A stretch of DNA of 64,000 bases from Syntrophales bacterium (lineage in GTDB: Bacteria; Desulfobacterota; Syntrophia; Syntrophales; UBA2251), in assembly GCA_035358035.1 (NCBI GenBank), contig DAOPOS010000001.1:101909-165908 (forward strand), in the 5' to 3' direction. The position numbers and the translations under genes are program-made. The notes under the pieces are model-generated. The model had not been told where the DNA came from, did not search any database, and saw only the letters and a program-made list of their open reading frames with translations. This document shows, piece after piece, positions 1 to 14,894 of this stretch (position 1 is its first letter; each line of letters opens with the position of its first letter).

Positions 1-63
1 GTGACGATCCCCCTGAACGAGATCGTGCTGGGGGTCAGGGGAAAGGTCCTGGCGCGCCGGTAG
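1..63 (+). CDS. 3' end of an unidentified CDS that starts upstream of the window
   Basis: Open frame from the window edge (VTIPLNEIVLGVRGKVLARR) ending at TAG 61-63. Too short to assign a family. Confidence 0.25.
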   Translation: MTIPLNEIVLGVRGKVLARR

Positions 64-124
64 ACTGCGTGGAGCGGGGCGGTCGGCGGCGTTCTGTCGA
101 ACCCGGTTGCATTCAAAGGTGCGA

Positions 125-160
125 GCCCCATAACCCCTCGGGGTTGTGGGGCTTTTTTCT
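125..160 (+). terminator. Rho-independent terminator
   Basis: 12-bp GC-rich stem (125-136 pairs with 141-152, loop CTCG) followed by TTTTTT at 153-158. Confidence 0.6.
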
Positions 161-201
161 TTCTGCGGCCCGGGCGGCCGGACCGGTGCGGAAGATGAGG
201 A

Positions 202-230
202 TTGACAAGGCCGGTCGATCCGGTTATGAG
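202..230 (+). promoter_or_regulatory. Candidate sigma-70 promoter for metH
   Basis: TTGACA at 202-207, 17-nt spacer, TATGAG at 225-230, about 100 nt upstream of the metH start. Confidence 0.35.
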
Positions 231-328
231 ACGCTGTCGGGAAAGGATTCCTCCATCCGTGGAATATAACCGTGTTTTCAATGAAATACCGATCGCGGCC
301 GAGGCAAGCCCTCCCGGGGGAGGTCGCC

Positions 329-2761
329 ATGTCTAGGCGCAGGACCTTTCGCGGCCTCTGGCGGGACGGCCTCGTCCTCCTCGACGGGGGCACGGGGACG
401 GAACTCCAGCGTGTCGGCATGCCCGCCGGGGTCTCTCCGGAGGCGTGGTGCCTCGCGCATCCTGACACCCTGAGCGGGATTCACCGCGCCTACCTCGACG
501 CCGGCGCGGCGATCCTCTACACCTGCACCTTCGGCGGCAGTCGTCCGAAGCTCGCCCCGTACGGGCACACCGACGTCCACGCGATCAACCGGGACCTCGC
601 CCGACTGGCCCGGCGGGTTGCGGGAAGGCGGGCGCTCGTCGCCGGGGACATTGGTGCGACGGGCCGTTTCGTGGAGCCCTTCGGCGACCTGCCTTTCGAC
701 GAGGCGGTGGCCATCTTCAGGGAACAGGCGGCGGGGCTTCTGGAGGGCGGCGTCGACCTCTTCGTCATCGAGACGATGCTCGACATCCAGGAGGCCCGGG
801 CGGCGCTCATCGCGGTCAAGGAGACCTGCCGGCTTCCGGTTATGGTCACCATGACGTATGAACAGGACGGCCGGACGCTGAACGGCACGGACCCGGTGAG
901 TGCCCTGATCACGCTGCAGGCCCTGGGCGCGGACGCCGTGGGGTGCAACTGTTCGACGGGGCCGGAAGCGATGGTCCCCCTGATCGCCGCCATGAAGCCC
1001 TACGCGACCGTCCCGCTCATGGCCAAACCGAACGCCGGGATACCGCGGCTCGTCGGCGACCGCACGCTTTTCGATATGGCGCCGGAGGCCTTCGGCGCGG
1101 CCGCGCGGGAACTCGCCGCCGCCGGAGCGAACCTCATCGGCGGCTGCTGCGGGACCACCGCGGCCCACATCGCCGCCCTGCGCACCGCCTTGGCGGGAGA
1201 GGCGCCGCAACCGCCCCGGCGCGGGGCGCTCGCCGCCGTCAGCTCCGCCCGCGCCCACCGGATCTTCGCCCCCGGCGATCCCCTCGTCGTCATCGGGGAA
1301 CGCCTGAACCCCACCGGCAAGAAGGCCCTCCAGCAGGAGCTGCGCGAGGGCAAGCTGGCCCTCGTCCGCCGGATGGCCCGGGAGCAGGAGGAGCGCGGCG
1401 CGGACCTCCTCGACGTGAACGTGGGCGTGCCCGGCATCGACGAGGTCAAAACCATCCGCGCGGTCGTCCGGCTCCTGGCCGCCGCAACGCCTCTGCCCCT
1501 CTGCCTCGATTCCGCCCGGGTTGACACGCTCGCCGCGGCGCTCCGGCTCTACCCCGGCCGCGCCCTGATCAACTCCATCTCGGGCGAGAAGGAGAAGATG
1601 GCCGAACTCCTGCCGCTCGCGGCCCGCTACGGGGCGATGTTCATCCTCCTGCCGCTCGCCGGCGGCGAGGTCCCCGCCACGGCGGAAAAACGCATGCAAA
1701 TCGTGCGCGACGTCTACCGGGCGGCACGGCGCCACGGGTTCACCAAGGAGGACATCGTCGTGGACAGCCTCGTCATGACCGTCGCCTCCAACCCACGGGC
1801 CGCCGCCGAGACCCTGAAGACCGTCGCCTGGAGCGCGGAGCGGTTCGGCGCCCGGACGGTGCTCGGCCTGTCGAATGTCTCCTTCGGGATGCCCGAACGG
1901 GACCGGCTGAACAGCGCCTTTCTGACCATGGCCCAGGCGGCCGGCCTGACGATGGCCATCGCGAACCCGTCGAGCGACGCCCTGGCCGATGCGCGGCGGT
2001 CGGGCGACGTCCTGCTGGGCCGGGACCGGGACGCGGCAGCCTACATCGCCCATGCGACCCAGAGCGCGCCGGGTGCGGAGCCTGTTCCTCCGGCGGCCGA
2101 CCCAGGGTCTCCGGAGGAACGGGTGCGGGAGGCCATTCTCGACGGCAACCGGGAGGAGATCGTCGCGCGGGTCGACGCGGTCCTGGCCGCCGGGACGCCC
2201 GCCGACCGCCTGGTCGACGACTGCCTGATCCCGGCGATCGTCGAGGTCGGCGACCGGTACGACCGGAAGACCTATTTCCTCCCGCAACTCATCGCCGCGG
2301 CCGAGGCCATGAAGGCGGCGCTCGCGCGCCTCGAACCCCTCCTCAGGCGGGAAGGAGCCGCCCGCGCCCACCGGGGGACGGTCCTGATGGCCACCGTCGC
2401 CGGCGACATTCACGACATCGGGAAGAACATCGTCGTCCTGATGCTGCGCAACCACGGCTTCGACGTCGTGGATCTCGGCAAGGACGTGACGGCGGAGGCG
2501 ATCGTCGCCGCCGCGCGGGAGCACCGGCCGGAGATGATCGGGCTGTCGGCCCTGATGACGACGACCATGGTCCGGATGAAGGACGTGATTGACTGGGCCG
2601 CGGACGCCGGGTTGACGGCGAAGTTTATGGTGGGGGGCGCCGTCGTAACGGCCGGGTTCGCCGCCTCGATCGGCGCCGCCTACGCCCGGGACGGCGTGGA
2701 GGCCGTCCGCGTGGCAACGGCCCTCGTCGAAGCGGTGCGGTCCGACCAGCCCGTTATGTGA
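329..2761 (+). CDS. metH: Cobalamin-dependent methionine synthase, short form without the AdoMet reactivation domain
   Basis: Homocysteine S-methyltransferase module (LLDGGTGTEL, NCSTGP, GGCCGTT). Pterin-binding module (VIGERLNPTGKK). B12-binding motif GDIHDIGKN near the C-terminus. The ATG at 329 has a GGGGGAGG RBS; the ORF track starts at 272. The protein ends after the B12 domain. Confidence 0.9.
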   Translation: MSRRRTFRGLWRDGLVLLDGGTGTELQRVGMPAGVSPEAWCLAHPDTLSGIHRAYLDAGAAILYTCTFGGSRPKLAPYGHTDVHAINRDLARLARRVAGRRALVAGDIGATGRFVEPFGDLPFDEAVAIFREQAAGLLEGGVDLFVIETMLDIQEARAALIAVKETCRLPVMVTMTYEQDGRTLNGTDPVSALITLQALGADAVGCNCSTGPEAMVPLIAAMKPYATVPLMAKPNAGIPRLVGDRTLFDMAPEAFGAAARELAAAGANLIGGCCGTTAAHIAALRTALAGEAPQPPRRGALAAVSSARAHRIFAPGDPLVVIGERLNPTGKKALQQELREGKLALVRRMAREQEERGADLLDVNVGVPGIDEVKTIRAVVRLLAAATPLPLCLDSARVDTLAAALRLYPGRALINSISGEKEKMAELLPLAARYGAMFILLPLAGGEVPATAEKRMQIVRDVYRAARRHGFTKEDIVVDSLVMTVASNPRAAAETLKTVAWSAERFGARTVLGLSNVSFGMPERDRLNSAFLTMAQAAGLTMAIANPSSDALADARRSGDVLLGRDRDAAAYIAHATQSAPGAEPVPPAADPGSPEERVREAILDGNREEIVARVDAVLAAGTPADRLVDDCLIPAIVEVGDRYDRKTYFLPQLIAAAEAMKAALARLEPLLRREGAARAHRGTVLMATVAGDIHDIGKNIVVLMLRNHGFDVVDLGKDVTAEAIVAAAREHRPEMIGLSALMTTTMVRMKDVIDWAADAGLTAKFMVGGAVVTAGFAASIGAAYARDGVEAVRVATALVEAVRSDQPVM

Positions 2762-2814
2762 CTCCCCAAAGGTCGCGCGGATCTCACCCTTTAAATTTTT
2801 CGGGACGCTCAGGC

Positions 2815-4032
2815 ATGGAGAAGAAAAAACAGCAGACCCGTTCACGCATCCTCGATGCCGCCGAGGCCCTCATCCTGGAGAGCAGCATCGAGGAGGTGAC
2901 GATTGCGAAGATCGCGGAGCGGGCCCAGGTAGCCGATTCCCTCGCCTACAAGTACTTCAAGGGCAAGAACGACATCATTTTTTCCGTGGTCGCCGAGCGA
3001 ACCCGCGAGGAAACCGCCCTTTTGCGCGAGCATCTCCAGGGCATCATCGACCCGAAATCCCGGTTGAGCAAGATGATCTGGCACATGCTGAAATACAACG
3101 ATTCGCATTCCAATCACGTGACGAATCTCCTCTTCCGGTGCCGGTCCAACAAGGACTTTTACCGATCCGAAGCGTATCGTCTGATGAAGGAATACGAAGC
3201 CATCCTCCTCAACATCCTCGAGGAGGGCGCCCGGGAGGGTGTGTTCCGGAGCGACATCGACATGAAGCTGATGAAGCACATCATCTTCGGAACGATCGAC
3301 ATCGAGGCCCTCAGCAGCATCGTCACCGGCGAAATCGAGAAGAGCTGCACGGATCTCGACGACATCATGGCCCTGCTCATCCCCATGCTGACAACGAAGG
3401 GCAAGCCCGCCGTGACGAACCGGCAGCAGGCGATCCTGCTCGCGGCGGAGAAGACCTTCGCCCGGCAGGGCTATGCCGACGCCAAGATCGCGGCCATCGC
3501 CGAGGAGGCCCAGGTGGCCGAAGGCACGATTTACGAATACTTTGCCGGCAAGGAAGACCTGCTGTTCGCCCTGTCCGGCAGGAACCTGAACGCCTATCTG
3601 GAAAGGGTTTCCAACATCTTCAACCCGCAGGCCGGCCCCTCCCCGCCGGAAAAATTATGGCGGCTGATGCGTTCCTTCGGTCTGAGCTTCCTGTCCATTC
3701 GGGACTTCATGACGGTCTACTTCATGTATACCCTGTTCAACCGCCGGTACTACCAGACCACCATCCAGCCGAAACAGAATGAATTCGCCCGGATGATGGG
3801 CCAGGTCATCGAGGAGGGCAAACAGGAAGGCACGTTTCGCGCGGACGTGAATCCGCGCGTCTTCTGGTATATGTTTCTGGGGTCCTACACCCACCTCGCC
3901 CTCCGCTGGATCATCATCGACCACAAGGAATTCGACAAGTACACGGAGGTCCGTCACCTGATGACCCTGATGATGACGGCCGCCCTCCGGGAACCCCCCA
4001 ACGTGGAATATCTGGTGCGAATCGAGTTCTGA
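2815..4032 (+). CDS. TetR/AcrR-family regulator with two tandem TetR units in one chain
   Basis: Two separate TetR N-terminal HTH signatures: RILDAAEALILESSIEEVTIAKIAERAQVADSLAYKYFKGKNDI and AILLAAEKTFARQGYADAKIAAIAEEAQVAEGTIYEYFAGKEDL. They lie about 200 aa apart, and each is followed by a helical ligand-domain-sized region. ATG at 2815 (MEKKKQ). Confidence 0.85.
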   Translation: MEKKKQQTRSRILDAAEALILESSIEEVTIAKIAERAQVADSLAYKYFKGKNDIIFSVVAERTREETALLREHLQGIIDPKSRLSKMIWHMLKYNDSHSNHVTNLLFRCRSNKDFYRSEAYRLMKEYEAILLNILEEGAREGVFRSDIDMKLMKHIIFGTIDIEALSSIVTGEIEKSCTDLDDIMALLIPMLTTKGKPAVTNRQQAILLAAEKTFARQGYADAKIAAIAEEAQVAEGTIYEYFAGKEDLLFALSGRNLNAYLERVSNIFNPQAGPSPPEKLWRLMRSFGLSFLSIRDFMTVYFMYTLFNRRYYQTTIQPKQNEFARMMGQVIEEGKQEGTFRADVNPRVFWYMFLGSYTHLALRWIIIDHKEFDKYTEVRHLMTLMMTAALREPPNVEYLVRIEF

Positions 4033-4354
4033 TTCCGCCCGCCTCCGGCCCCGACCGGGAGGACGTCCCACCGGCATCGCGACGCCCCGTCTCAGCGCGT
4101 GATATGACCGTCGGCCGTCGTTCCGGCTTCTGGCCCATTCCGTCGGACCCAAAGCACCGATCTCTTTCTTCAGAACCTGCTCCATGAGCTTCATTGTGTA
4201 TTATCACCTACGGTATTTTCATATACAATATCATTTCCATTTGACACCTAATCTATCTTATGCCAGGATTTTCTCAATCAGAAATCAAGAATGTGGGTCA
4301 TAGAAAGCCGCCGTTGGACGGCCTACACCATGTTGGGCACACCAAGGAGGAACC

Positions 4355-4778
4355 ATGAGCATGGGAAATAAAGGTTGGCCAAGAAATCAAAGTACTGGAC
4401 CAAATGGTGGACTATCTGCCGGACCGGGCGGTGGTATGTCTACAGGTCCAAATGGTGGCGCATCAACTGGGCCAGGTGGTGGAATGTCAACAGGGCCTGG
4501 CGGTGGTCTTTCAACTGGACCAGGGGGGGGGATTATCGACTGGACCAGAAGGAGGTTTATCAACTGGACCGGGTGGGGGCTTATCTACAGGTCCAGGTGG
4601 GGGACTGTCCACTGGACCGGGGGGGGGCCTTTCGACCGGTCCCGGCGGTGGTATGTCCACTGGGCTGACACCCTACTACAGTAACATCCCCCCATGGCCT
4701 GTTTTTGTAAAAGAACTTGAAAAACGGGGGATGCACCAGTACGCCGAACTTATCCGTCAATATCTCCCAAATGTTTAA
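4355..4778 (+). pseudogene. Glycine-rich STGPGGG(L/M) octapeptide-repeat protein, reading frame broken at a G9 tract
   Basis: Track ORFs 4355..4684 and 4404..4778 carry the same repeat in two frames. The frame switches at the 9-G run 4523-4531. Removing one G, or a +1 shift skipping A4532, gives one 141-aa product. RBS AAGGAGG lies before ATG 4355. Confidence 0.6.
4391..4655 (+). repeat. 11 tandem 24-nt coding repeats (octapeptide S-T-G-P-x-G-G-L/M)
   Basis: The span is 265 nt = 11 x 24 + 1. The extra nucleotide is the additional G in the 4523-4531 homopolymer. Confidence 0.9.
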
Positions 4779-4853
4779 TATGCAGAATAAATCGCATTTC
4801 ATAATGTCGCTTCGCACAGCTTCTTGGGATTATCGGTGGGCAGGAACGAAAAT

Positions 4854-5621
4854 ATGAATTTTACACATTACGACCTTGGTCAAAAAAGGGGAGGAGAAAT
4901 CATTGAGGTGACATTACAGGGAAGTGCGGCCAACGTCCGACTAATGGATTCTTCTAATTTCAATAGTTACCGAAACGGGCGGAGTCACAGATATCAAGGA
5001 GGGCTTGTTAAGAGATCGCCTTATCGACTTCAAGTGCCCAGGTCAGGGCATTGGCATGTCACCATTGACATGGCAGGGCTTAGAGGCACAGTCCGTTCTT
5101 CTATTCGTCAATTGCCGGGGGCATTGCCGACAGCACAAGAAGCTCCCCTATCATCAGTTCCTTCTCTCGTCCGAGGGAGAGAACCAGATTTTCACACCGA
5201 AGATGATCGTGAATTTGATGTTTTCATCTCGCATGCATCCGAAGACAAGGATGAAGTCGTTCGCCCACTGGCCCATTCCCTTAAACAAGGAGGTCTAAAA
5301 GTTTGGTATGATGAATTTGAACTCAAGATAGGAGATAGCCTTAGGAGAAAGATAGACAGCGGTCTTGCAAAAAGCCGTTTTGGTATTGTTGTTTTTTCTA
5401 AGGCTTTTCTTACAAAAGGATGGACCAACTATGAACTGGATGGTTTGGTAACGAAAACCGTAAGCGGGGAGCAGGTCTTGCTTCCCATTTGGCATAATGT
5501 AACAAAAAAAGAGATTATTGATTATAGTCCTTCTTTGGCTGACAAAGTTGCGAGAAACACTTCCACTCATACAGTGGAAGAAATCGCTGAAGAAATAGTT
5601 ATGCTTATCAATGGGGATTAA
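4854..5621 (+). CDS. DUF1883-TIR fusion protein
   Basis: The N-terminus MNFTHYDLGQ..GSAANVRLMDSSNFNSYRNGRSHRYQGG..SGHWHVTIDMAG matches the DUF1883 pattern. The C-terminus has TIR motifs FDVFISHASEDKD and KGWTNYELDG (the SxWCxxEL-type motif with the catalytic-position Glu). ATG at 4854; the track starts at TTG 4824. Confidence 0.85.
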   Translation: MNFTHYDLGQKRGGEIIEVTLQGSAANVRLMDSSNFNSYRNGRSHRYQGGLVKRSPYRLQVPRSGHWHVTIDMAGLRGTVRSSIRQLPGALPTAQEAPLSSVPSLVRGREPDFHTEDDREFDVFISHASEDKDEVVRPLAHSLKQGGLKVWYDEFELKIGDSLRRKIDSGLAKSRFGIVVFSKAFLTKGWTNYELDGLVTKTVSGEQVLLPIWHNVTKKEIIDYSPSLADKVARNTSTHTVEEIAEEIVMLINGD

Positions 5622-5759
5622 ACTAATCTCATAAAACCAAATTGCCCAACAAGGCGCTTTCAGTCGGACGCTCAAACAGCTGCGCGCCGCTGAAGCGCAA
5701 CGTTAGGGCAAGAGAAAAAGATACCGCAAGACAAAACCATACAGGAAAGGTCGGATCAG

Positions 5760-6143
5760 ATGGCACAACCACGGGCGTTTATCAGTTTCGAAATGGAAGA
5801 TAAATGGGCACGCGACTTCCTTGTTCAGCAGGCGAAGGACCGGAAGAACGATATTGCGTTCTACGATTATTCAGTGAAAGACCCCTTCGACTCCAAATGG
5901 AAGACGGAGTGCAGGAAGCGGATCGCGATGACGAAAGGCACCATCGTCTTGGTCGGCGAAACCACATGGAAATCTGAGGCCGTCCTGTGGGAGATCGCTG
6001 AGACAATTAGTCAAGACCACTATATCTTTGGAATCCAGATCAACAGGGACAAGACCCACACAATCCCCAAGGGCTTGCCCAGCCGGAACGTGATACGCTG
6101 GGATTTCGAGCAGATCGTAAAGTGGTTGAAAACATGGGTATGA
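5760..6143 (+). CDS. ThsB-type TIR-like protein (DUF1863 family)
   Basis: AFISFEMEDKWARDFL...GTIVLVGETTWKSEAVLWEIAETI...IFGIQI...VIRWDFEQIVKWL follows the DUF1863/MTH538 TIR-like pattern, including the W-E-I Glu. Confidence 0.85.
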   Translation: MAQPRAFISFEMEDKWARDFLVQQAKDRKNDIAFYDYSVKDPFDSKWKTECRKRIAMTKGTIVLVGETTWKSEAVLWEIAETISQDHYIFGIQINRDKTHTIPKGLPSRNVIRWDFEQIVKWLKTWV

Positions 6144-6149
6144 TCAGTC

Positions 6150-6983
6150 ATGTATCTTGACGACATTGCTTCACGAATCCGGTCACACATCCCAGATGAC
6201 CAGATGCCAGATGAGAACGCAGAGGAGCTGTTGCGCCTTTATGCAGTTCTTCTTCGCGCGAAGGGCACGGGCATTACGGAAAGCGATATCCATGACGCTT
6301 GGTCGGCGTGGATGTCCACACGTGACGAGTCTCATAAGGCTCTTGTCAATTATGAAGATCTCCCACCCGAAGTTCGCGACGCGGATAGTGTCTTCGCGAG
6401 TGCTGTCCGGAAAGCGGCTCAGGAGTTGGGACAAAGCAACGTGCTCCTCCCTGAGTTTGAAAGAATACTTTTCCCGTCGGGTCCCCCTGCCGATGTTGAA
6501 TCCACCCAACAGGCGCTGGATCTCTACAAAATCATGGTATCGAGTTCCGAGAGCTTGGTGAGCCGTCGTCAGGCGGTCAACACGTTCTTTTTGACAATGA
6601 ACGGTGCGCTTCTGACCGCCTTCGGAATTATTGTCAAGAGTTCTGGCGCAGATCAGCTAAGTGCTCTCGGTATCTTTGTCTTGGCTGTCGCCGGAGCGAT
6701 TCTCTGTGGGGCGTGGCGAAGTCTTATCACGTCATTCGGGCAATTGAATCGGGGCAAGTTCCAGGTGATCAACACGATCGAACGATACTTGAAGACAGCA
6801 ATATACAAAGCCGAGTGGGAAGCTCTCGGTCGCGGCGAGAACCCTAAGATATATAGATCTTTCACATCACGAGAGATATGGGTTCCGAATGCGCTTCTTG
6901 CGTTGCACGTTTTGGCAGCCATAGCCGCGCTTCTTGTGGCAATGGGATATGTCACCTGTGGAGCGGGAGGAGCTACGCCCTAA
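6150..6983 (+). CDS. Membrane protein with an unassigned helical N-domain and 3 predicted TM helices; candidate effector
   Basis: Starts 6 nt after the ThsB-like stop. Residues 1-~135 are soluble. Hydrophobic segments lie at about 143-162 (VNTFFLTMNGALLTAFGIIV), 170-192 and 243-267. I could not assign a family. Confidence 0.7.
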   Translation: MYLDDIASRIRSHIPDDQMPDENAEELLRLYAVLLRAKGTGITESDIHDAWSAWMSTRDESHKALVNYEDLPPEVRDADSVFASAVRKAAQELGQSNVLLPEFERILFPSGPPADVESTQQALDLYKIMVSSSESLVSRRQAVNTFFLTMNGALLTAFGIIVKSSGADQLSALGIFVLAVAGAILCGAWRSLITSFGQLNRGKFQVINTIERYLKTAIYKAEWEALGRGENPKIYRSFTSREIWVPNALLALHVLAAIAALLVAMGYVTCGAGGATP

Positions 6984-7062
6984 CAACATCTTGGACACGT
7001 ACGCAAGTAAGCCGCGCTGCTTCGATCTGCGGCTCCCTTGCGCCGGTCAAGGTGGACGTTAG

Positions 7063-8328
7063 ATGCCAAGACGGAATGAAAAGGTCGGCGCGACGAACCC
7101 GAGAAAGAGCAGGCAGAAGGTGAATTACGAGATCAAGAAAGACAGAACGTGGCTTGTCCGCGAAGAAGAACGGGTCTACGAGGCTAGGAGCCAAGGCGTT
7201 CTTGGCAGGAAACGCAAGCGGTTCCGATTAATCGATGTGTTCTCCGGCGCGGGAGGGATGACACTCGGATTCTCGAAAATGTTCGGGCACGCATTCGATT
7301 CTGTTTGGGCCAACGATTTTGACGATGCCTGTGTGCATACGTATCGCAGGAACTTCGGAGACCACTGTGTATCAGGTGACATCGTGGATATTCTCGACGA
7401 TCCGAAAACGGAGATTCCATCCGCCGACGTCGTCATTGGCGGGCCACCGTGCCAAGGGTTCAGCCTTCTGAATAAGAACCGCGAGGGCGATCCGCGAAAG
7501 CAACTGTGGCGTCCTTTTCTTGATATTGTCGAGCGTTCCGGAGCTCAAATATTCGTCATGGAGAACGTGCCCCAGCTACTGGGTTCTTTCGAGCATGGTG
7601 AAATCATGGGCACGGCTGAAGCCTTGGGCTTCAGCTGCTGGGGAGAAGTTCTTTGCGCAGCCGACTACGGTGTTCCGCAGACTCGCCGTCGGGCGATCAT
7701 CGTCGGGTGCAAGTTTTTCGACCCGTCTCAGGTTTTTCCGCCGCGGAAAACACACTTCGACCCGCGCAAGGGGGGCGCACAAATCTCCTTTTTGCAGGCC
7801 GACAGCAAAGGGTATCTGCCTGGCGCCGTGAAGTGGCGCACGGTGTGCGATGCGATTGCGGATCTTCCGCCGCCGAAGGGAACGGAGATTCGTGAAGAGG
7901 CCCCACCGCTTGATCTCCACTTCGGACGTTCTCCTACGCCGATGAGCATGGCCCGATACAAGGTGATTCCTGAAGAGGGCATGAACCGTTTCGACCTACA
8001 GAAGCGTGCGCCCGATCTGACTCCCGGTTGCTGGATTCGGAAGAAAAGCGGCGGCACGGATCTTTTCGGTCGGCTGTGGTGGGACCGTCCTGCGTTCACG
8101 ATTCGGACGGAGTTCTTCAAGCCGGAGAAGGGCCGGTATCTGCACCCGAAACAGCACAGACCGATAACGCACCGAGAAGCAGCGCGTTTGCAGTCCTTCC
8201 CGGATGAGTTCGTATTCACGGGATCGAAAATCGAGATTGCGCGGCAGATTGGGAACGCCGTGCCGCCGCGCCTAGCGGCACGCGTGGCCGACGTGGTGTA
8301 TCTGCTCCTGACGATGAACAACCGGTGA
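7063..8328 (+). CDS. DNA (cytosine-5)-methyltransferase
   Basis: Motif I DVFSGAGGMTLGF, motif IV GGPPCQGFS, motif VI FVMENV, motif VIII QTRRR, motif X GNAVPP. Confidence 0.9.
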   Translation: MPRRNEKVGATNPRKSRQKVNYEIKKDRTWLVREEERVYEARSQGVLGRKRKRFRLIDVFSGAGGMTLGFSKMFGHAFDSVWANDFDDACVHTYRRNFGDHCVSGDIVDILDDPKTEIPSADVVIGGPPCQGFSLLNKNREGDPRKQLWRPFLDIVERSGAQIFVMENVPQLLGSFEHGEIMGTAEALGFSCWGEVLCAADYGVPQTRRRAIIVGCKFFDPSQVFPPRKTHFDPRKGGAQISFLQADSKGYLPGAVKWRTVCDAIADLPPPKGTEIREEAPPLDLHFGRSPTPMSMARYKVIPEEGMNRFDLQKRAPDLTPGCWIRKKSGGTDLFGRLWWDRPAFTIRTEFFKPEKGRYLHPKQHRPITHREAARLQSFPDEFVFTGSKIEIARQIGNAVPPRLAARVADVVYLLLTMNNR

Positions 8329-8329
8329 C

Positions 8330-8743
8330 ATGACCGACATATTCTCCAAAGAGAAGCGAAGCTGGATCATGAGTCGCGTCAAGGGGCGCGACACCAAGCC
8401 GGAGATGTTGGTTCGTTCGTTTGTTCATCGGATGGGATTTCGCTTTCGGGTTCATAGGCGTGACCTGCCGGGGAACCCGGATATCGTACTGCCGCGATAC
8501 GGAAAAGTGATCTTCGTGCACGGATGTTTCTGGCACGGGCACAACCGGTGTCCGCGATCGAAGCGGCCGGCAACGAACAAGAGCTTCTGGAACAAGAAGC
8601 TCGATGCGAACATCGAGCGAGATAAGCGCTTCCGAAGGGAGCTACGTCGGATGGGTTGGAAGTTGTTGGTAGTATGGCAATGCGAGACCCACAACCCGGA
8701 GAAACTGTTGGGGAAGCTGGAAAGGTTTCTGTATGACGAATGA
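8330..8743 (+). CDS. vsr: Very-short-patch repair endonuclease
   Basis: SWIMSRVKGRDTKPEMLVRSFVHRMGFRFRVHRRDLPGNPDIVLPRYGKVIFVHGCFWHGH is a typical Vsr sequence. It starts 2 nt after the methyltransferase stop. Confidence 0.9.
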   Translation: MTDIFSKEKRSWIMSRVKGRDTKPEMLVRSFVHRMGFRFRVHRRDLPGNPDIVLPRYGKVIFVHGCFWHGHNRCPRSKRPATNKSFWNKKLDANIERDKRFRRELRRMGWKLLVVWQCETHNPEKLLGKLERFLYDE

Positions 8744-9674
8744 ACGAAAGAAGGTGACGGCTGGCGACCCGGAAGTCGTAAGGCAGAAGGTTGCAAAACT
8801 TATCGCGAACTTCGAAGCGGAGCTCCAGTCGGGCGAGCTTCGCCCGAAGGTTCTTGCCCTGATTCCGATCTTCCACGGGCTGCGCGACATTGGCAAGGCA
8901 CTGATACCGACCGAGTACGCTTCGGCCGCGAGAGACCGGATCCTGTACTACTTCCGGCAGTATCCTGGGACGATTATCAACAGCGACGAGCTGCTTGTCG
9001 TCTCGGGGATTCAGGAGTACGCGCGGCGCTTGCGCGAACTGCGTGTGCAGTTCGGTTGGGCAATCGTGAGCGGCGTCACGATCAAGGAAATGCGCGAGGA
9101 CGAAGCCGATGAAGTACCGGCCGAACTAAAGACCATGAGGCCGAATGAATATGTTCTCTTGAGTGCGGCCGAAGATCGCGACGCGGCGCATCGCTGGCAC
9201 GTCGCGAACACGATCCGCAAGGAGCGCGGATCTATACGCGGCAAGATTCTGAAGTTTCTTCGGGCAAACGTTGGGCGCGGTGTGACGAACGAGGAGTTGC
9301 GCTATGTAGCCGGGGACAAAACGGAGTGGGCACGACGCGTGCGCGAGCTGCGGACGGAGCATGGTTGGCCCATAGCGACAAAGACCACCGGGCGCCCGGA
9401 TTTGGGCGTCGGGGTCTACGTGTTGCAGGCAGACCGGCAAAGCCCGGAACATGACCGCAGCATTCCGGACGATGTTCGTCGGGAAGTGCTGCGGCGCGAC
9501 GGGTACAAGTGTCGAATATGCGGTTGGTCACACGAAGAATGGAATCCGTCCGACCCACGACATCTGGAGTTGCATCATATAGAGCATCATGCGAAGGGCG
9601 GTGCGAACGTGGGGGAGAACCTGAAGACCTTATGCACCGTCTGCCATGACAAGGTACACCGCAGGGAGAAGTGA
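8733..9674 (+). CDS. HNH endonuclease with two tandem wHTH-like N-terminal modules; probable restriction component
   Basis: C-terminal HNH motif: CRICGW...HLELHHIEHHAKGG...NLKTLCTVCHDKVH. Internal duplication: RILYYFRQYPG..DELLVVSGIQEYARRLRELRVQFGWAI versus KILKFLRANVG..EELRYVAGDKTEWARRVRELRTEHGWPI. Overlaps vsr by 11 nt. Confidence 0.8.
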   Translation: MTNERKKVTAGDPEVVRQKVAKLIANFEAELQSGELRPKVLALIPIFHGLRDIGKALIPTEYASAARDRILYYFRQYPGTIINSDELLVVSGIQEYARRLRELRVQFGWAIVSGVTIKEMREDEADEVPAELKTMRPNEYVLLSAAEDRDAAHRWHVANTIRKERGSIRGKILKFLRANVGRGVTNEELRYVAGDKTEWARRVRELRTEHGWPIATKTTGRPDLGVGVYVLQADRQSPEHDRSIPDDVRREVLRRDGYKCRICGWSHEEWNPSDPRHLELHHIEHHAKGGANVGENLKTLCTVCHDKVHRREK

Positions 9675-9774
9675 CAGTAGCGCCGAATGTTTCGATCGAA
9701 TGCCTTTCCCGATGAATTGTGCGTTCTGTGATTGCGTATTCCGATGATTCCGCCCCTCGATTCCGGAGGAAGCC

Positions 9775-9868
9775 GCCACCCGAAACCGATCCAAAGCGCC
9801 AGGGTGTTGCGATGGATGCCCGGTGTCTCGGCGATCTTCCGAATGCTGTACCCCTGATACCGCGCTGA
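9775..9868 (-). pseudogene. Fragment of a transposase/resolvase-type HTH (mobile-element remnant)
   Basis: The minus-strand frame reads ARYQGYSIRKIAETPGIHRNTLALWI, a classic HTH of IS transposase N-termini. A stop lies 4 codons upstream, there is no start, and nothing recognisable follows. Confidence 0.3.
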
Positions 9869-10321
9869 GCTAAAAACCTACCCTACCCTTATCTCTCAGC
9901 AACTCCCCCCACCACCACCCCCACCCTTCGACGGGCTCAGGGTGACAGCGATGACTTTTTACGAGGTCATCCTTTTTGGCTCAATTTATCAGCCTCGTTA
10001 CAATAATTCGGGAATTCATCGCGGATGAACCCCATTCACCCCTTGAACCGGTCTCTGCCCCGAGTGGGCCCGAATCGGCCTTTCGGCGGATCCTCCCCGG
10101 GCCTGGCACTCTAAAACTCTGTAATAACAGCATAATCATAAATTAAATGATTCTCAGCGCCCGGCGGATTCTTCACAGGCCTTTTTTCTCTTGACATTAT
10201 GTTTTCCTTAAATTAGGTGAACGGTACTCAATCAAGGCCGGAACTGAACCGGAGATTCTTCTGCAAACACGTTCATTGCACGGGCGATGAATGGAGCATA
10301 CAAACGAAAGGAGAGTTGGAC

Positions 10322-11881
10322 ATGGTTTTAGGAGATTTTTTCAAGAAGCACAGCCAGGAAATCCCCAATAACGAGGCGCTCGTCTTCAAGGAGCGACGGA
10401 TCACGTTCAAGCAGTACGACGAGGCGACGGACCGGGTGGCGATGGGTCTCCTGAAGCTGGGTGTAAAGCGCGGCGACCGGATCGCGATCTACGGGCCGCT
10501 CTGGCCGGAAATCGTTTTCGCCTATTTCGGCGCGGCCAAGATCGGGGCCATCGGCGTTCCCATGAGCGCGCGGACCACGGCGCCGGAGCTCAAATTCTTC
10601 GTCAACGACTCGGAGAGTTCCGTTCTTTTCATGCCCAGCACCTTCATGGGCGCGGACTTCATGGCTAATCTGGACGCGGTCCGGAGCGAGCTACCGACGC
10701 TGAAGCACGTCGTCTGCCTCGACCTGGAAAAGGAGGGCGTCCTCCTCTGGGAGAAGTTCCTGGCCGAACCCGACCCAGCGGTGTTGAACAAGGCCAAGGA
10801 TGCGGTCCAGGAGGACGATTCCGCCCTCTTCATCTACACGTCGGGCACGACGGGCGTTCCCAAGGCCGCCCAGTTGACGCACAAGAATCTGATCTCCCTG
10901 ACGAACGCCCAGATCGAGGCCACCGGATACCATCGCGGGCACATCATCGTCCTGAACCTCCCCTTCAGCCATGTCGGCGGCGCCGTGATGGGGATCATCT
11001 GCAACGTGAACGTGGGCAACAAGGTCGTCATGATGGACGCCTTCAATCCCGAGGAAACCCTCCGCCTGGTTTCCGAAGAGAAGGCAACGACGCTTGGACA
11101 GGTGCCCGCCATGTACGCCATGGAGCTTTCCCATCCCAACCTGAGCAAGTACGACATCAGCACCCTCAAGCTCCCCATCGTCTCCTCCCAGCCGTGCCCC
11201 TCGGAGCTGATCACGGCCTTCAAGAAGATCGTCGGCGTGATCCCGCTCAACGCCTACGGCCTGACGGAAACCACCGCCGCCATCACCTACACGCATCCCA
11301 GCCACGGAGAGGAGAAACTGACCTACTCCGTGGGCAAGCCCGTCCCCTCGATCCAGATGGTTCTCAAGGATGACGACGGCAAGATCGTCCCCACGGGCGA
11401 GTCGGGCGAGATCTGTGTCAAGGGGCCCGTCGTCATGAAGGGCTACTGGAAGCGCCCCGAAGAGGACGCCAAGGTCTTCGACGCCGACGGCTTCCTCCAC
11501 ACGGGCGACATGGGCCGTTTCGAGGAGGACGGCTCGCTCGTGATCGTCGGCCGGAAGAAGGAGATGTACATCCGCGGCGGCGAGAACGTCTATCCCCCGC
11601 AGATCGAGGACGCGATCTGCAAGCACCCGGACGTGATGCTCGCGGCGGTCATCGGCCGCCCCCACGAGAAGTGGGGCGAGGTCGGGCGCGCCTACATCAT
11701 GCCCAAGCCGGGGAAAAACCCCGCGCCGGAGGAGATCAAGGAATTCCTCAAGGACAAGCTGTCCAACTTCAAGATCCCGGAGGACTTCATCATCCGGCCC
11801 ATGCTGCCCCTGACGCCCCTGGGAAAGGTCAAGAAGCTCGACCTCTACACGGAAATGAAACAGGAACTCGGCAAAAAGTAG
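10322..11881 (+). CDS. Acyl-CoA synthetase / AMP-dependent ligase
   Basis: AMP-binding motifs YTSGTTGVPKAA, GYGLTE-like NAYGLTETT and TGDMGRFEEDGSLVIVGRKKE. ATG at 10322 has RBS AAAGGAGAG; the track starts at 10217. Confidence 0.85.
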   Translation: MVLGDFFKKHSQEIPNNEALVFKERRITFKQYDEATDRVAMGLLKLGVKRGDRIAIYGPLWPEIVFAYFGAAKIGAIGVPMSARTTAPELKFFVNDSESSVLFMPSTFMGADFMANLDAVRSELPTLKHVVCLDLEKEGVLLWEKFLAEPDPAVLNKAKDAVQEDDSALFIYTSGTTGVPKAAQLTHKNLISLTNAQIEATGYHRGHIIVLNLPFSHVGGAVMGIICNVNVGNKVVMMDAFNPEETLRLVSEEKATTLGQVPAMYAMELSHPNLSKYDISTLKLPIVSSQPCPSELITAFKKIVGVIPLNAYGLTETTAAITYTHPSHGEEKLTYSVGKPVPSIQMVLKDDDGKIVPTGESGEICVKGPVVMKGYWKRPEEDAKVFDADGFLHTGDMGRFEEDGSLVIVGRKKEMYIRGGENVYPPQIEDAICKHPDVMLAAVIGRPHEKWGEVGRAYIMPKPGKNPAPEEIKEFLKDKLSNFKIPEDFIIRPMLPLTPLGKVKKLDLYTEMKQELGKK

Positions 11882-11894
11882 GACGGAGGACGGA

Positions 11895-13247
11895 ATGGAA
11901 AAATACGATGTCATCATTATCGGCGCCGGCATTGCCGGACTTGGCGTCGGCGGCATACTTCAGAACAAGGGTTTCAAGACGGCGGTCTTCGAAAAGAGCA
12001 AGGTTGTCGGCGGGCGTTCGCGGACCTTCGAGCTCCCCGGCGGCTGGCGGGTCGACATGGGCACCCACTGCGTCGATCAGGGCGTGCATTCGTCCTGCGC
12101 CAAGCTGCTCACGGAGCTGGGAACGGACATCCCCTGGTCGCACAACCTCGAGGGGTTCATGTTCTACGGCGAGGACGGGAAATGGAAGCCGATGATGGAG
12201 TCTTTCAACCTGGGCGAGGCGGAGAGGAAGGAACTCAATGAGTTGCAGACCTGGATCAAGAACGCCTCCGACGAGCTGATCGACCATTACGACAACGTCT
12301 CCCTGACGAAACTGCTCGAGGAGCGGGTCAAATCGCCCAAGATCGGCGAATTCTGCAAGACCGTCGGCATGGTGCAGACGACCCTGACGGAATCGGACAT
12401 CATTTCCGCGGGCGAGTTCATCCACATCTACCGCGACCAGATGCGCGTCTCGAAGAGCCCCGACCTTCCGTTCGACGCGGTGCGGATGCCCCTGGGCGGC
12501 GTTCAGACCATGATGAACGCCATGGCGGAGGCCTACAAGAAACGGGGCGGAGCGCTTCATCTCGGCACGCCGGTTCGCAAAGTCCTGGTCGGAAAGGGCG
12601 GGCCGGCGGAGCTCGTGACGGACGGCGGCAGCTATTCCTCGCCGATCGTGGTCATCGCCGCGCCGATCTGGAACGTGCTGAAGTTCCTCGACATGGCGGC
12701 CATGGACCAACTGGCGCCGGCATGGGCGAAGCGCATGCGCGAATGCGAGTTCGAGACCAGCGCCTCCATGGGATACACCATCGGGACCAAGGTGCCCCTG
12801 TTCGACGACAAATGCTACCTGTCGGCCTGGCGGGTTCCCGGACTGGGCATGCCCCTGCAGATCCTGGGGCATACGAACTTCGACACAACGATCGCGCCCC
12901 CCGGCCACATGATCGCCTTCATGGGCGCCTGCGGCACGCCGGCGCAGGTGGGCGACGCGGCCTTCCGCAAGAAGACCCTGGATCAGTTCTGGGTCGTCCT
13001 CAATCAGATGTTCCCCAACATGGAGAGCAACCTGGTGTGGAAGCAGGACGGATTCACGATCGGCATCGACGGACTCTCCCGCTCGCCGGGCATGACCGGT
13101 CGCTACCGGCTGCCCGTGGAGCTCCCGGAGGTGCCCGGTCTGTACTTCTCCGGCGACTGCTACCTGGGCCGGGGCGTCGGCATGAACACGGCGGCCAGCT
13201 CCGCCATGATCTGCGTGGACGCGATCCTGTCCAAACACGGAAAATAG
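11895..13247 (+). CDS. FAD-dependent oxidoreductase (phytoene-desaturase/amine-oxidase-like)
   Basis: N-terminal Rossmann motif YDVIIIGAGIAGLGVGGIL...FEKSKVVGGRS. C-terminal FSGDC...G-G motif. Confidence 0.8.
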   Translation: MEKYDVIIIGAGIAGLGVGGILQNKGFKTAVFEKSKVVGGRSRTFELPGGWRVDMGTHCVDQGVHSSCAKLLTELGTDIPWSHNLEGFMFYGEDGKWKPMMESFNLGEAERKELNELQTWIKNASDELIDHYDNVSLTKLLEERVKSPKIGEFCKTVGMVQTTLTESDIISAGEFIHIYRDQMRVSKSPDLPFDAVRMPLGGVQTMMNAMAEAYKKRGGALHLGTPVRKVLVGKGGPAELVTDGGSYSSPIVVIAAPIWNVLKFLDMAAMDQLAPAWAKRMRECEFETSASMGYTIGTKVPLFDDKCYLSAWRVPGLGMPLQILGHTNFDTTIAPPGHMIAFMGACGTPAQVGDAAFRKKTLDQFWVVLNQMFPNMESNLVWKQDGFTIGIDGLSRSPGMTGRYRLPVELPEVPGLYFSGDCYLGRGVGMNTAASSAMICVDAILSKHGK

Positions 13248-13267
13248 TTATTTCATCCATCCGACAA

Positions 13268-13313
13268 CATCAGGGGTGCAGGGGAGCGTTGCAGTCCCCC
13301 CGCACCCCTGATG
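13268..13313 (+). other. Extended intergenic hairpin (12 + 5 bp)
   Basis: CATCAGGGGTGC (13268-13279) pairs with GCACCCCTGATG (13302-13313). Inner stem GGGGA (13281-13285) pairs with TCCCC (13295-13299). No U-tract. It sequesters the track's ATG at 13311. Confidence 0.5.
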
Positions 13314-13343
13314 ACGGATCTCGCAAAAAAAGGGGGACTGCCC

Positions 13344-14894
13344 ATGAATCGAAACATCGCACAGTTTTTGGACCGAAACATCGAGACTTACGGCGAGTAC
13401 GAACAATTCATCTTTCTGGGCGCCAGCGGGCCGCAGCGGATGACCAACACCGAAATCCGCCGCCAGGCGCAGGCCCTGGCCGCGGGCCTTCGCCAGAACG
13501 GGGTCGAACGGGGCGACATCGTTTGCACCGTGGTCAGCAACGTGCCGGAGATTCCCGAGATCATCAACGGCATCAACCGGTGCGGCGCGGTTTACCTGCC
13601 CGTCGTGTTCCTGCTCACGGCGGCGGAGATCCGCTACATCCTGGAAGACTCGGGCTCCAAGGTGATCATCACCGAAGCGATGCTGCTGCCGAAGATCCGG
13701 GAAGCGGCCGAAGGCGTGGCGACGATCCGAAAGATCATCGTCATCGGCGGCGAAACCGGCGGCCACACGCTTGCCTACGCGGACCTTCTCAAGGACGCCG
13801 ATGCAACCCGGGGCCAGCTCGTGGCGGTGGAGGCGGATGACGTCGCCATCCTCATGTACACGTCCGGGACGACCGGCGTTCCCAAAGGGGTGATGATCAC
13901 CCACCGCGGCATGGAGACGCAGATGCGCAACGGCGTCGTGTACACGGGGTGCGAATACGGATCCGTCGTGATGGTCGTCGTCCCCATGAACCACATCCTG
14001 GGGGTGCTCACCTGCCTGGAGGGCAACTCGGTCGGCACCATTACCTACATGATGCAGCCCTTCGATCCCCGGAAGGTGCTGGATGCCATCCGCACGTACA
14101 AGGTCGAGTTCATTCCGCTGGTGCCGACCATGATCGTCTACCTGACGATGGTCTTCGATCCGAAGAAGGACGATCTGTCGTCGATGAAGATGTTCATCTC
14201 CGCCGGAGGCCCCTTAAGCGTGGAAACGCAGGAACAGGCCATGAAGCTTTTCAACGCGGACATCCGGATTTCGTATGGGTGCACCGAGACGGCGGGCACC
14301 ATCACCCGTTCGCACCATGAACTGCCCATCAAGCTGGGAAGCGCCGGCGCGCCGATCGCCTCCATGAGCCTCCTCGTAGTGGATGACAACGGCCGGGAGG
14401 TGCCCCGCGGCGCCGAGGGCGAGGTGATCTGCAAGGGCCCGATGGTCATGGCCGGATATCTGAACAAACCGAAGGAAACCGCGGATGTCCTGAAAGACGG
14501 CTGGTTTTACACGGGCGATGTGGGTCGGCTCGACGCGGACGGCGAGCTCTACATCACGGGACGCAAGAAGGACCTGATCATCAAGGGCGGCGAAAACATC
14601 GATCCGGGGGTCGCCGAGGGACTCCTGTACAAGCATCCCGCCGTGATGGAGTGCGCCGTCGTCGGCATGAAGGACGCAAAGTTCGGCGAGGAAGTGGCCG
14701 CCGCGGTCACCCGTAAGCCGGGCACGGAAACCACGGAGGCGGAACTGCTGGCGTACCTGAACCAGCACCTGAAGGCCTTCATGGTTCCCAAACGCGTCTT
14801 TTTCTTCGACGCCCTGCCAAAAACGGGGCTGGGCAAGATCCTCAAGCGGGAGATCCGGAGAATCATCGATGAAACGCCCGGGGATCGCGGATAA
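13344..14894 (+). CDS. Acyl-CoA synthetase / AMP-dependent ligase (second, divergent paralogue)
   Basis: YTSGTTGVPKGV, SYGCTETAG and TGDVGRLDADGELYITGRKKD. ATG at 13344 lies behind an AAAGGGGGA RBS; the track start at 13311 is inside the hairpin. Confidence 0.85.
   Translation: MNRNIAQFLDRNIETYGEYEQFIFLGASGPQRMTNTEIRRQAQALAAGLRQNGVERGDIVCTVVSNVPEIPEIINGINRCGAVYLPVVFLLTAAEIRYILEDSGSKVIITEAMLLPKIREAAEGVATIRKIIVIGGETGGHTLAYADLLKDADATRGQLVAVEADDVAILMYTSGTTGVPKGVMITHRGMETQMRNGVVYTGCEYGSVVMVVVPMNHILGVLTCLEGNSVGTITYMMQPFDPRKVLDAIRTYKVEFIPLVPTMIVYLTMVFDPKKDDLSSMKMFISAGGPLSVETQEQAMKLFNADIRISYGCTETAGTITRSHHELPIKLGSAGAPIASMSLLVVDDNGREVPRGAEGEVICKGPMVMAGYLNKPKETADVLKDGWFYTGDVGRLDADGELYITGRKKDLIIKGGENIDPGVAEGLLYKHPAVMECAVVGMKDAKFGEEVAAAVTRKPGTETTEAELLAYLNQHLKAFMVPKRVFFFDALPKTGLGKILKREIRRIIDETPGDRG

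Follow-up and report, generated by a model that had tools for sequence, protein, structure and literature searches.

The stretch of DNA analysed here (the window, 64,000 nucleotides from a Syntrophales bacterium) carries at 4854-6983 three genes that an inspection of the letters alone, the sequence-only reading, had described as a Thoeris-like locus with two different TIR proteins. This analysis concerns mainly the second and third of these genes, thsB and the gene for a putative membrane effector, which together are called the cassette below. According to the list of open reading frames (ORFs), all three lie on the + strand: a gene for a DUF1883-TIR fusion of 255 amino acids (aa) at 4854-5621, with an ATG start and an alternative TTG at 4824; thsB at 5760-6143, which by its Pfam match encodes a minimal TIR protein of 127 aa; and the effector gene at 6150-6983, for a 277-aa membrane protein with the Pfam domains DUF7701 and 8xMP. 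The effector gene starts 6 nucleotides (nt) past the ThsB-like gene (gap 6144-6149), as had been noted, and a motif resembling a ribosome-binding site, GGAAAGG (5744-5750, + strand), was read from the sequence 9 nt ahead of the thsB ATG. The description of three same-strand genes in a low-GC island agrees with the ORF list and with G+C contents of 0.44 for the DUF1883-TIR gene, 0.505 for thsB and 0.528 for the effector gene, as compared to 0.706 for the left flank and 0.646 for the window. The 138-nt + strand spacer between the DUF1883-TIR gene and thsB (5622-5759) had been called GC-richer; at 0.493, it is richer than the DUF1883-TIR gene but poorer than thsB.

The thsB product matches the Pfam family ThsB_TIR (PF08937), above the Pfam threshold, with an E value of 7.4e-15. 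In PADLOC it matches ThsB at 1.6e-7, and its best match is PDC-M50B at 6.5e-8; the effector matches no PDC-M50 partner, nor any other PADLOC model, at E <0.01. The glutamate at the catalytic position is Glu78 (nt 5991-5993), in the motif LWEIAE, and it is invariant among the aligned homologues. Thus, 5760-6143 encodes a ThsB-type TIR that keeps the W-E-I glutamate, as the sequence-only reading had proposed and as is expected of a Thoeris system. By analogy with such systems, ThsB is predicted to be an infection-triggered maker of an NAD-derived signal.

The cassette across genomes

A scan of one genome per species yielded 50 loci with relatives of the effector (numbered L below), in which ORFs were called and searched with the window proteins; 39 of them held a DUF7701-8xMP homologue. 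In 36 of these 39 loci, the next gene upstream of the homologue is ThsB-like and has the same orientation. The upstream genes match thsB with E values of 1e-54 to 1e-79 in most loci and 1e-20 to 1e-22 in two, and in most loci gaps or overlaps of a few nucleotides are found between the two genes. The three exceptions are a homologue with no upstream room at a contig end (L035), a C-terminal fragment at a contig end (L038) and an N-terminally truncated copy (L022). These results show that the membrane protein is conserved beside DUF1863/ThsB genes in many phyla, and that the effector gene stands with thsB in one operon, as is characteristic of Thoeris.

The cassette is found in more than 10 phyla, including Gemmatimonadota, Acidobacteriota, Planctomycetota, Verrucomicrobiota, Bacteroidota, Chloroflexota, Spirochaetota, Actinomycetota and Pseudomonadota. 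Across these diverse hosts, the two proteins keep 50-85% identity, which points to horizontal spread under strong constraint. Nucleotide similarity between the window and related loci runs from 5745-5775 to 6886-6946, and since it is confined to thsB and the effector gene, the mobile conserved unit is exactly those two genes. No third conserved gene was found beside the cassette; the neighbours are varied, with scattered defence genes among them (PglX, methylases, PADLOC candidates and extra ThsB genes). Two loci, L008 (7178-7711 and 9113-9511, - strand) and L013 (5084-5551), have, near the cassette, additional TIR genes that are ThsB-like but of another subtype, an arrangement similar to the multi-ThsB Thoeris islands of Yirmiya et al. 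(bioRxiv 10.64898/2025.12.03.692087).

Seven loci of Actinomycetota (L030-L033, L035, L036 and L039) have the effector as two ORFs, one for DUF7701 and one for 8xMP. The two ORFs overlap by 4 nt in L032, L033 and L036 (for example, 5989-6285 and 6282-6803 in L033) and are 1-15 nt apart or overlap more broadly in the other four. In these loci, sensor and pore may be made as two polypeptides, or frameshifts may have recurred.

TIR partners also appear in the wider 8xMP family. A search with the 8xMP profile returned 3021 representative proteins at E<=1e-3. Among the best 150 of these, 140 contained 8xMP, 23 DUF7701, 17 a match to ThsB_TIR and 12 one to TIR_2, with no other recurring partner. In the fusions, the TIR domain is N-terminal to 8xMP; several are single chains of about 300 aa that join TIR or ThsB_TIR to 8xMP and have no DUF7701 (proteins P0385, P0389, P0391, P0397, P0404 and P0506). 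A ThsB_TIR gene also lies directly upstream of stand-alone 8xMP genes at L040, L042 and L043. Other stand-alone 8xMP genes, for proteins of about 170-220 aa in Streptomyces, Amycolatopsis, Actinosynnema and Nocardia (L041, L044 and L046-L049), have dodecin, radical SAM, CoA-transferase and similar genes as neighbours, and not TIR genes.

The effector and its N-terminal domain

The effector had been described as having an unassigned helical N-terminal domain and three transmembrane (TM) helices. Its helical character and the three TM helices stand, but the domain is not unassigned: the first 92 residues (6150-6425, + strand) form the Pfam domain DUF7701 (PF24792, E 1.5e-32 over aa 2-91, 112.1 bits against a cutoff of 27). 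Residues 123-261 (6516-6932, + strand) form the domain 8xMP (PF24838, E 1.9e-35, 122.1 bits against a cutoff of 30). On the same strand, hydropathy places TM1 at 6576-6635 (approximately aa 143-162), TM2 at 6663-6728 (approximately aa 172-193) and TM3 at 6882-6950 (approximately aa 245-267), and the AlphaFold2 (AF2) model has helices at aa 116-164, 169-213 and 241-265, respectively. 8xMP begins with an amphipathic helix, which TM1 and TM2 follow; a basic hairpin of about 50 aa, on the cytoplasmic side, then leads to TM3. Lysines and arginines number 3 on the N-terminal side, 0 in loop 1, 9 in loop 2 and 0 at the C-terminus, which argues that the N-terminal domain and the 50-aa hairpin are cytoplasmic. 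The database holds 501 homologues of the effector, the top 120 being 65-100% identical to it. Pfam describes 8xMP as "Octameric membrane protein family", and the NCBI name of homologues P0006 and P0098 is "RipA family octameric membrane protein", which may refer to RipA of Francisella; a literature search on the names DUF7701, 8xMP and octameric membrane protein brought up no relevant paper. By analogy, 8xMP is predicted to be a ring-forming, membrane-disrupting module.

Several comparisons relate DUF7701 to the Repeat12 (R12) domain of ryanodine receptors (RyR). Searched as a single sequence, the N-terminal domain gave weak matches, all of them to bacterial chains named "putative ryanodine receptor". 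When a DUF7701 profile was run against PDB sequences with hmmsearch, RyR-domain chains made up 5 of the 7 matches and took the first two places: the tandem chimera 6uhi had an E value of 9.7e-6 and the single-repeat chains 6uag, 6ug5, 4n05 and 3nrt had E values of 0.08-0.15, the other two matches being to tRNA methyltransferase at E 0.1. Profile-profile alignment with hhalign against a RyR-domain profile built from eight phage and bacterial proteins gave a Prob of 95.7% (E 9.4e-9, score 52, 73 columns), as compared to a Prob of at most 4.1% and a score of at most 19.9 in the controls, two reversed and 20 column-shuffled. The N-terminal domain was modelled with a predicted local distance difference test (pLDDT) score of 87.5. 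A Foldseek search of the BFVD viral models with this structure found DUF7701 proteins of Streptomyces phages at the top (E 2e-5 to 1e-4), and ranks 4-16 were mostly phage proteins named "Ryanodine receptor Ryr domain-containing" (prob 0.97-1.0, TMq 0.46-0.55).

The residues conserved in DUF7701 point in the same direction. His48 (6291-6293), Trp51 (6300-6302), Trp54 (6309-6311), His62 (6333-6335) and Asp79 (6384-6386) are the invariant residues of the domain; His48, Trp51, His62 and Asp79 are invariant in 26 homologues and align in hhalign with H75/W78/H100/D117 of RyDEP and H129/W132/H154/D171 of RyR Tad. These two are phage proteins of the RyR Repeat12 type that bind or cleave Thoeris signals (RyDEP, PMC13232231; RyR Tad, bioRxiv 10.64898/2026.06.04.730250). 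RyR Tad binds 3'-cyclic ADP-ribose (3'cADPR) with a dissociation constant of 43 nM, and also 2'cADPR and cADPR, through H129/W132, H154 and D171 (bioRxiv 10.64898/2026.06.04.730250). The spacing in RyDEP, RyR Tad and the RyR-domain alignment is His, Trp at +3, His at +25 and Asp at +42; the distance from the second His to the Asp, 17 residues, is the same in DUF7701. Thus, by sequence comparison, DUF7701 is a divergent RyR Repeat12-like domain, and it is predicted to be a cytoplasmic receptor for a signal of the cyclic ADP-ribose type. It belongs to the same domain superfamily as RyDEP and RyR Tad, with the His-x-x-Trp, His and Asp contact residues conserved; those are phage anti-Thoeris proteins, whereas DUF7701 is a separate Pfam family and forms the N-terminus of a host membrane effector.

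We found no prior description of an RyR-R12-like nature for the effector's N-terminal domain in the literature searched. A host effector with an RyR Repeat12-type domain is not mentioned in the portions searched of the RyDEP and RyR Tad reports (PMC13232231; bioRxiv 10.64898/2026.06.04.730250), nor does the preprint on type V Thoeris (bioRxiv 10.64898/2025.12.03.692087) mention RyR in connection with its effector, ThsF.

DUF7701 also occurs apart from 8xMP. Protein P0499 (L143 1091-1834) is a fusion of DUF7701 to a GIY-YIG nuclease in which the His/Trp/His/Asp set is conserved as well; its upstream neighbour on a 2.1-kb contig is a DUF6308 gene, not a TIR gene. Protein P0469 has DUF7701 followed by an integrase-like region. 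Both are single examples and could be artefacts of gene calling. Such fusions are what one would expect of a portable sensor domain.

A tblastn search of phage genomes with the effector found 39 Streptomyces phage records, all matching in the DUF7701 part only. Gp207 of phage Stigma (L145 295-567) is a solo DUF7701 of 90 aa (Pfam E 1.5e-31), and gp201 of phage Limpid (L144 1081-1755) has DUF7701 after two DUF7736 repeats. The phage genes adjoin an RNA ligase gene, and their products keep the His/Trp/Trp/His/Asp set at the same spacing as the host domain. Streptomyces genomes are themselves among those with the cassette (L021, L024 and L025). Carriage of a host sensor domain by phages is the pattern known from signal sponges, and by this analogy the solo phage DUF7701 proteins are candidate anti-Thoeris sponges or hydrolases.

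Thoeris types and the predicted mechanism

Neither SIR2, SLOG, Macro nor SLATT domains were found with Pfam and PADLOC in the ORFs scanned in 2758-9674, which comprise the three genes, a Gly-rich ORF, restriction-modification (RM) genes and a TetR gene. The statement that the locus has no SIR2/SLOG or Macro ThsA is therefore correct for these ORFs, and none of them encodes the effector of type I (SIR2-SLOG), type II (Macro-TM), type III (SLOG) or type IV (caspase-like protease) Thoeris. In December 2025, Yirmiya et al. listed 29 putative types of Thoeris effector and verified seven new ones (bioRxiv 10.64898/2025.12.03.692087). In their type V, a TIR is paired with a three-TM protein annotated as PF10028 (DUF2270), which they renamed ThsF and modelled with AlphaFold3 as a heptameric ring. 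The type V system of B. thuringiensis was shown to defend and signals with 3'cADPR; the effector of Bacillus sp. 1NLA3E did not respond to 3'cADPR.

The window ThsB is 82%, 76% and 65% identical to three TIRs listed in Table S1 of that preprint as "DUF2270 - Type V" (IMG 2515435456, 2516918698 and 2653083036, respectively). Since this tight TIR family always precedes a DUF7701-8xMP gene in the loci that we examined, the "DUF2270" label in Table S1 presumably refers there to a DUF7701-8xMP effector. Two features of type V are thus present, a TIR within the authors' set and a three-TM effector, here 277 aa long and with an extra N-terminal domain. The cassette has the same two-gene operon of a TIR and a three-TM effector as type V, and its effector has the layout of ThsF: amphipathic helix, TM1, short loop, TM2, cytoplasmic hairpin of approximately 45-50 aa and TM3. 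In contrast, the verified ThsF proteins (B. thuringiensis DAR 81934 and Bacillus sp. 1NLA3E) are about 132-141 aa long, and their TIRs belong to other clusters than that of the cassette. The preprint places the signal pockets of ThsF between protomers, whereas in the cassette effector the separate RyR-like domain would be the likely site.

By its TIR and the topology of its effector, the locus would therefore be assigned to type V, with the effector as a distinct subfamily that appears to have a dedicated N-terminal sensor domain absent from the tested ThsF proteins. The suggestion that the membrane protein is a new, uncatalogued kind of effector did not survive, as both of its domains are Pfam families and orthologous TIRs stand in Table S1. 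Thoeris systems in which a TIR makes the signal and a small membrane protein acts as effector are now recognised, so that the locus in its first description adds no new class; the pairing is known from the Yirmiya preprint, and what is new is the putative RyR-like sensor domain of the effector.

The verified ThsF gene of B. thuringiensis (L053 3773-4198) was recovered by protein search and contig look-up; the tblastn route from the B. thuringiensis ThsB led to TIRs beside SIR2 and Macro partners and to no ThsF. Beside it lie an unannotated gene for a 271-aa protein (1722-2537) and a Gabija-like pair of a UvrD helicase and an OLD-TOPRIM protein (4454-6759). These neighbours are consistent with a defence island.

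Type II (a TIR with Macro-TM, signal His-ADPR) and type VII (a TIR with SLATT) are like the cassette as proposed here in that TM helices, joined to a soluble part that senses a nucleotide, damage the membrane and so kill the cell downstream of a TIR signal; however, the soluble nucleotide sensor of type II is Macro, whereas that of the cassette is RyR-like, and its membrane module is 8xMP rather than the type II TM region or SLATT. Animal ryanodine receptors, which carry R12 on a Ca2+ release channel, likewise have an R12-type domain on a channel-forming membrane protein. This likeness would be a functional analogy, as their membrane part is unrelated and they are vastly larger, with a tandem repeat per chain where the effector has one repeat per protomer.

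We propose that, on phage infection, ThsB would turn NAD+ into a signal of the cyclic ADP-ribose type, candidates being 3'cADPR (as in the tested type V system), 2'cADPR, cADPR and N7-cADPR. The signal would bind the RyR-like pocket of DUF7701, and binding would rearrange an oligomeric 8xMP ring so that the inner membrane is breached and the infected cell is stopped. The linkage in 36 of 39 loci, the fusions of TIR to 8xMP and the resemblance of DUF7701 to cADPR binders lend support to the view, taken from the start, that the membrane protein and the ThsB-like TIR work together as a Thoeris-type pair. We consider it probable that 5760-6983 is a self-contained, horizontally mobile, two-gene Thoeris-type abortive-infection cassette that works in this way. 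We hold more tentatively, at a little less than an even chance, that DUF7701 represents the host-side, ancestral use of RyR Repeat12, serving as a cytoplasmic receptor through which cyclic ADP-ribose isomers made by a TIR gate an oligomeric 8xMP pore directly.

A number of results weigh against this interpretation. With respect to the sensor, the Pfam RyR model (PF02026) did not match the N-terminal domain alone at E<=10, where DUF7701 was the only match; in Foldseek searches of solved structures, RyR domains led the list with non-significant values (E 0.3-3, TM-score 0.36-0.42); and the 11-residue loop between the Trp and the second His is missing from DUF7701. Its His/Asp pair corresponds by alignment to the catalytic dyad of the RyDEP glycosidase, so that cleavage instead of mere binding is possible. 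With respect to the membrane module, the full-length AF2 model is mediocre (pLDDT 72.7), and neither a sequence profile nor Foldseek with this model found a solved relative of 8xMP in the PDB. The ring or pore is suggested by the family name and by the AlphaFold3 models of ThsF in the Yirmiya preprint, and 8xMP may not be solely a defence module, given the actinobacterial stand-alone copies among housekeeping-type genes.

The assignment to type V is open to similar objections. We infer the link to Table S1 through TIR sequences, which are what the table gives, rather than through effectors. PF10028, the family that defines type V, did not match the effector at E<=10, nor did it match any of ten stand-alone 8xMP proteins at E<=1. 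The verified B. thuringiensis ThsF is 141 aa long and has no N-terminal domain or DUF7701. It matches 8xMP at E 0.012 and 15.9 bits, below the cutoff of 30, in an alignment that is colinear along the entire domain (10-134 against 6-130), and hhalign of ThsF against 8xMP gave non-significant Prob values of 0.9% with small profiles and 1.4% with profiles of 120 and 70 sequences. Among 24 members of the verified ThsF family, 3 touch 8xMP and 3 touch PF10028 (best E 0.033), all below threshold, and all that the alignment of ThsF with 8xMP has in common is the motif R-x-x-x-N-S/T-F-F/L-L at the start of TM1. The effector was accordingly not placed in the verified ThsF family, hmmscan, hhalign and reciprocal hmmsearch all being non-significant; for the two we claim a common topology and not homology. 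A role of the DUF7701-8xMP subfamily in defence is suggested by comparative evidence.

Four other explanations were considered. The roles of the two proteins might be reversed, with the membrane protein sensing membrane perturbation, DNA injection or a phage protein and the TIR killing by NAD+ depletion, with no diffusible signal. ThsB is indeed a bare TIR without an obvious sensor domain, the single-chain TIR-8xMP fusions would seem to make a diffusible signal unnecessary, and many bacterial TIRs are NADase effectors (bioRxiv 10.64898/2025.12.03.692087). However, in such systems the signal is made by just such bare TIRs, about 120 aa long, and the same TIR cluster (2635319349) includes the type IV TIR of Pseudomonas sp. 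1-7, type IV TIRs signalling with N7-cADPR (same preprint). DUF7701, moreover, keeps the full ligand-contact set of RyR domains that bind cADPR isomers, and phages carry it alone, which makes sense for sponging a small molecule; we therefore regard reversed roles as unlikely. We think it less likely again that DUF7701 is a signal-cleaving enzyme like RyDEP, and the membrane protein a signal-clearing regulator, an immunity factor or a self-limiting effector. The RyDEP dyad, H75 and D117, does align with the invariant His48 and Asp79, but of eight other RyR-domain homologues tested in the RyDEP study, six bound the signal and none cleaved it (PMC13232231). A degrader as the only partner of the TIR would also leave the system with no effector, and the strict conservation of 8xMP, together with its fusions to TIR, favours a role in output.

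It is also conceivable that the cassette has no immune role and that a housekeeping or stress membrane module of the RipA kind merely lies beside a TIR-like gene. The metabolic neighbours of actinobacterial stand-alone 8xMP genes would fit such a role, as would the NCBI family name, which cites RipA and not defence. Mobility is indicated instead by the patchy occurrence of the cassette, at 65-85% identity in phyla that are unrelated; the cassette sits in a defence island, its TIR cluster was chosen by Yirmiya et al. for enrichment beside defence genes, and the solo phage domain suggests conflict with phages. We consider a non-immune role very improbable. Finally, the DUF1883-TIR protein, with or without the Gly-rich gene, could be a second sensor for the same membrane effector, as adjacency, shared strand and shared low-GC island might suggest; some Thoeris loci have several ThsB genes, and L008 and L013 have extra ThsB-like genes. 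Co-occurrence argues strongly against such a three-gene system. A metagenome scan for DUF1883-TIR found 413 relatives, of which 80 loci at 66-95% identity were kept, 79 of them with a called homologue. A ThsB-like or 8xMP gene lies beside DUF1883-TIR in none of these 79 loci, and DUF1883-TIR is near the cassette in none of the 39 cassette loci, L017 alone matching, weakly, in the TIR portion (E 1.5e-13). The spacer is not conserved, the similarity among cassettes begins at the thsB start codon, and the G+C content of the DUF1883-TIR gene is 0.44 as compared to 0.51-0.53 for the cassette genes. A three-gene system is thus hardly credible, and the sequence-only reading of a three-gene, two-TIR locus, with the DUF1883-TIR as a possible second sensor, is not sustained; its alternative suggestion of an independent unit is.

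If the proposed reading of the cassette as a TIR signal maker with an RyR-type receptor is correct, a widespread Thoeris subfamily would sense through an RyR-type pocket, unlike the inter-protomer pockets proposed for ThsF, and the coupling of an R12-type nucleotide sensor to a membrane channel would predate animals. Cyclic ADP-ribose has been implicated in modulating RyR function (PMC13232231; bioRxiv 10.64898/2026.06.04.730250), and the effector would offer a bacterial model for the question, raised in both reports, of whether cADPR-based signals act on ryanodine receptors via R12. The solo DUF7701 proteins of Streptomyces phages would then constitute a new anti-Thoeris family, of sponges or hydrolases, that arose from the host sensor or converged with it. 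Host DUF7701 may likewise explain where phage RyR-domain sponges and glycosidases came from, or what they mimic. Because the sensor is recognisable and has the residues that phage proteins use for 2'cADPR and 3'cADPR, the mechanism is open to testing. The comparison also indicates that type V as catalogued is heterogeneous, and that the PF10028 label is unfit for the DUF7701-8xMP subfamily and marginal even for verified ThsF.

Neighbouring genes in the defence island

The product of 4854-5621 combines DUF1883 (E 1.2e-35, aa 1-88) with TIR_2 (E 5e-20), and the glutamate of its WTNYELDG motif is Glu194, at the catalytic position; the fusion and its glutamate had both been recognised correctly. 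In PADLOC, the protein matches PDC-S66, a single-gene candidate, with an E value of 3.4e-73 in the TIR half only (aa 111-252 against profile positions 139-280 of 282), the N-terminal domains being different. The DUF1883-TIR loci have no conserved neighbour; the largest shared neighbour family, present in 10 of the 79 loci, consists of other TIR proteins. The DUF1883-TIR gene is an independent unit outside the cassette and, judging from these comparisons, probably encodes a separate single-gene TIR defence protein.

The spacer separates these two independent units, the DUF1883-TIR gene and the cassette. It contains the imperfect inverted repeat that had been noted at 5663-5698, GCGCTTTCAG...CTGAAGCGC, which we place at 5654-5698. 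The repeat is followed by no terminator-like run of T on the + strand, and a comparison of the spacer with the thsB upstream regions of 38 related loci found no similarity; the repeat is not conserved in related loci. The repeat was therefore rejected as a regulatory part of the cassette.

Upstream of the DUF1883-TIR gene lies a Gly-rich repeat gene (4355-4778) that is split over two frames, 4355-4684 and 4404-4778, and has no Pfam match. It consists of GGGLSTGP units encoded by a 24/48-nt tandem repeat with runs of G, and the gene may have been split by a frameshift, by phase variation at a G run or by faulty assembly. A relative is found in one of the 80 DUF1883-TIR loci, beside a 95%-identical DUF1883-TIR relative, where it is intact and encodes 158 aa (L063 196-672). 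On the basis of this single occurrence, the Gly-rich ORF was rejected as a partner of DUF1883-TIR.

Directly downstream of the effector gene is a complete-looking type II RM module (7063-9674), with a Dcm C5 cytosine methylase (7063-8328), the mismatch endonuclease Vsr (8330-8743) and an HNH endonuclease (8733-9674). The module and the two TIR units together make up a defence island of approximately 5.5 kb and a G+C content of 0.53, bordered by a TetR gene on one side and acyl-CoA synthetase genes on the other; a search of 1-14000 for a tRNA or an integration site near the island found none. This one low-GC defence island houses the DUF1883-TIR gene, the frameshifted Gly-rich gene and the Dcm-Vsr-HNH module as independent units. 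The TetR gene that borders it (2758-4032) encodes a 424-aa protein of two tandem TetR units, with two TetR_N and C-terminal domains.

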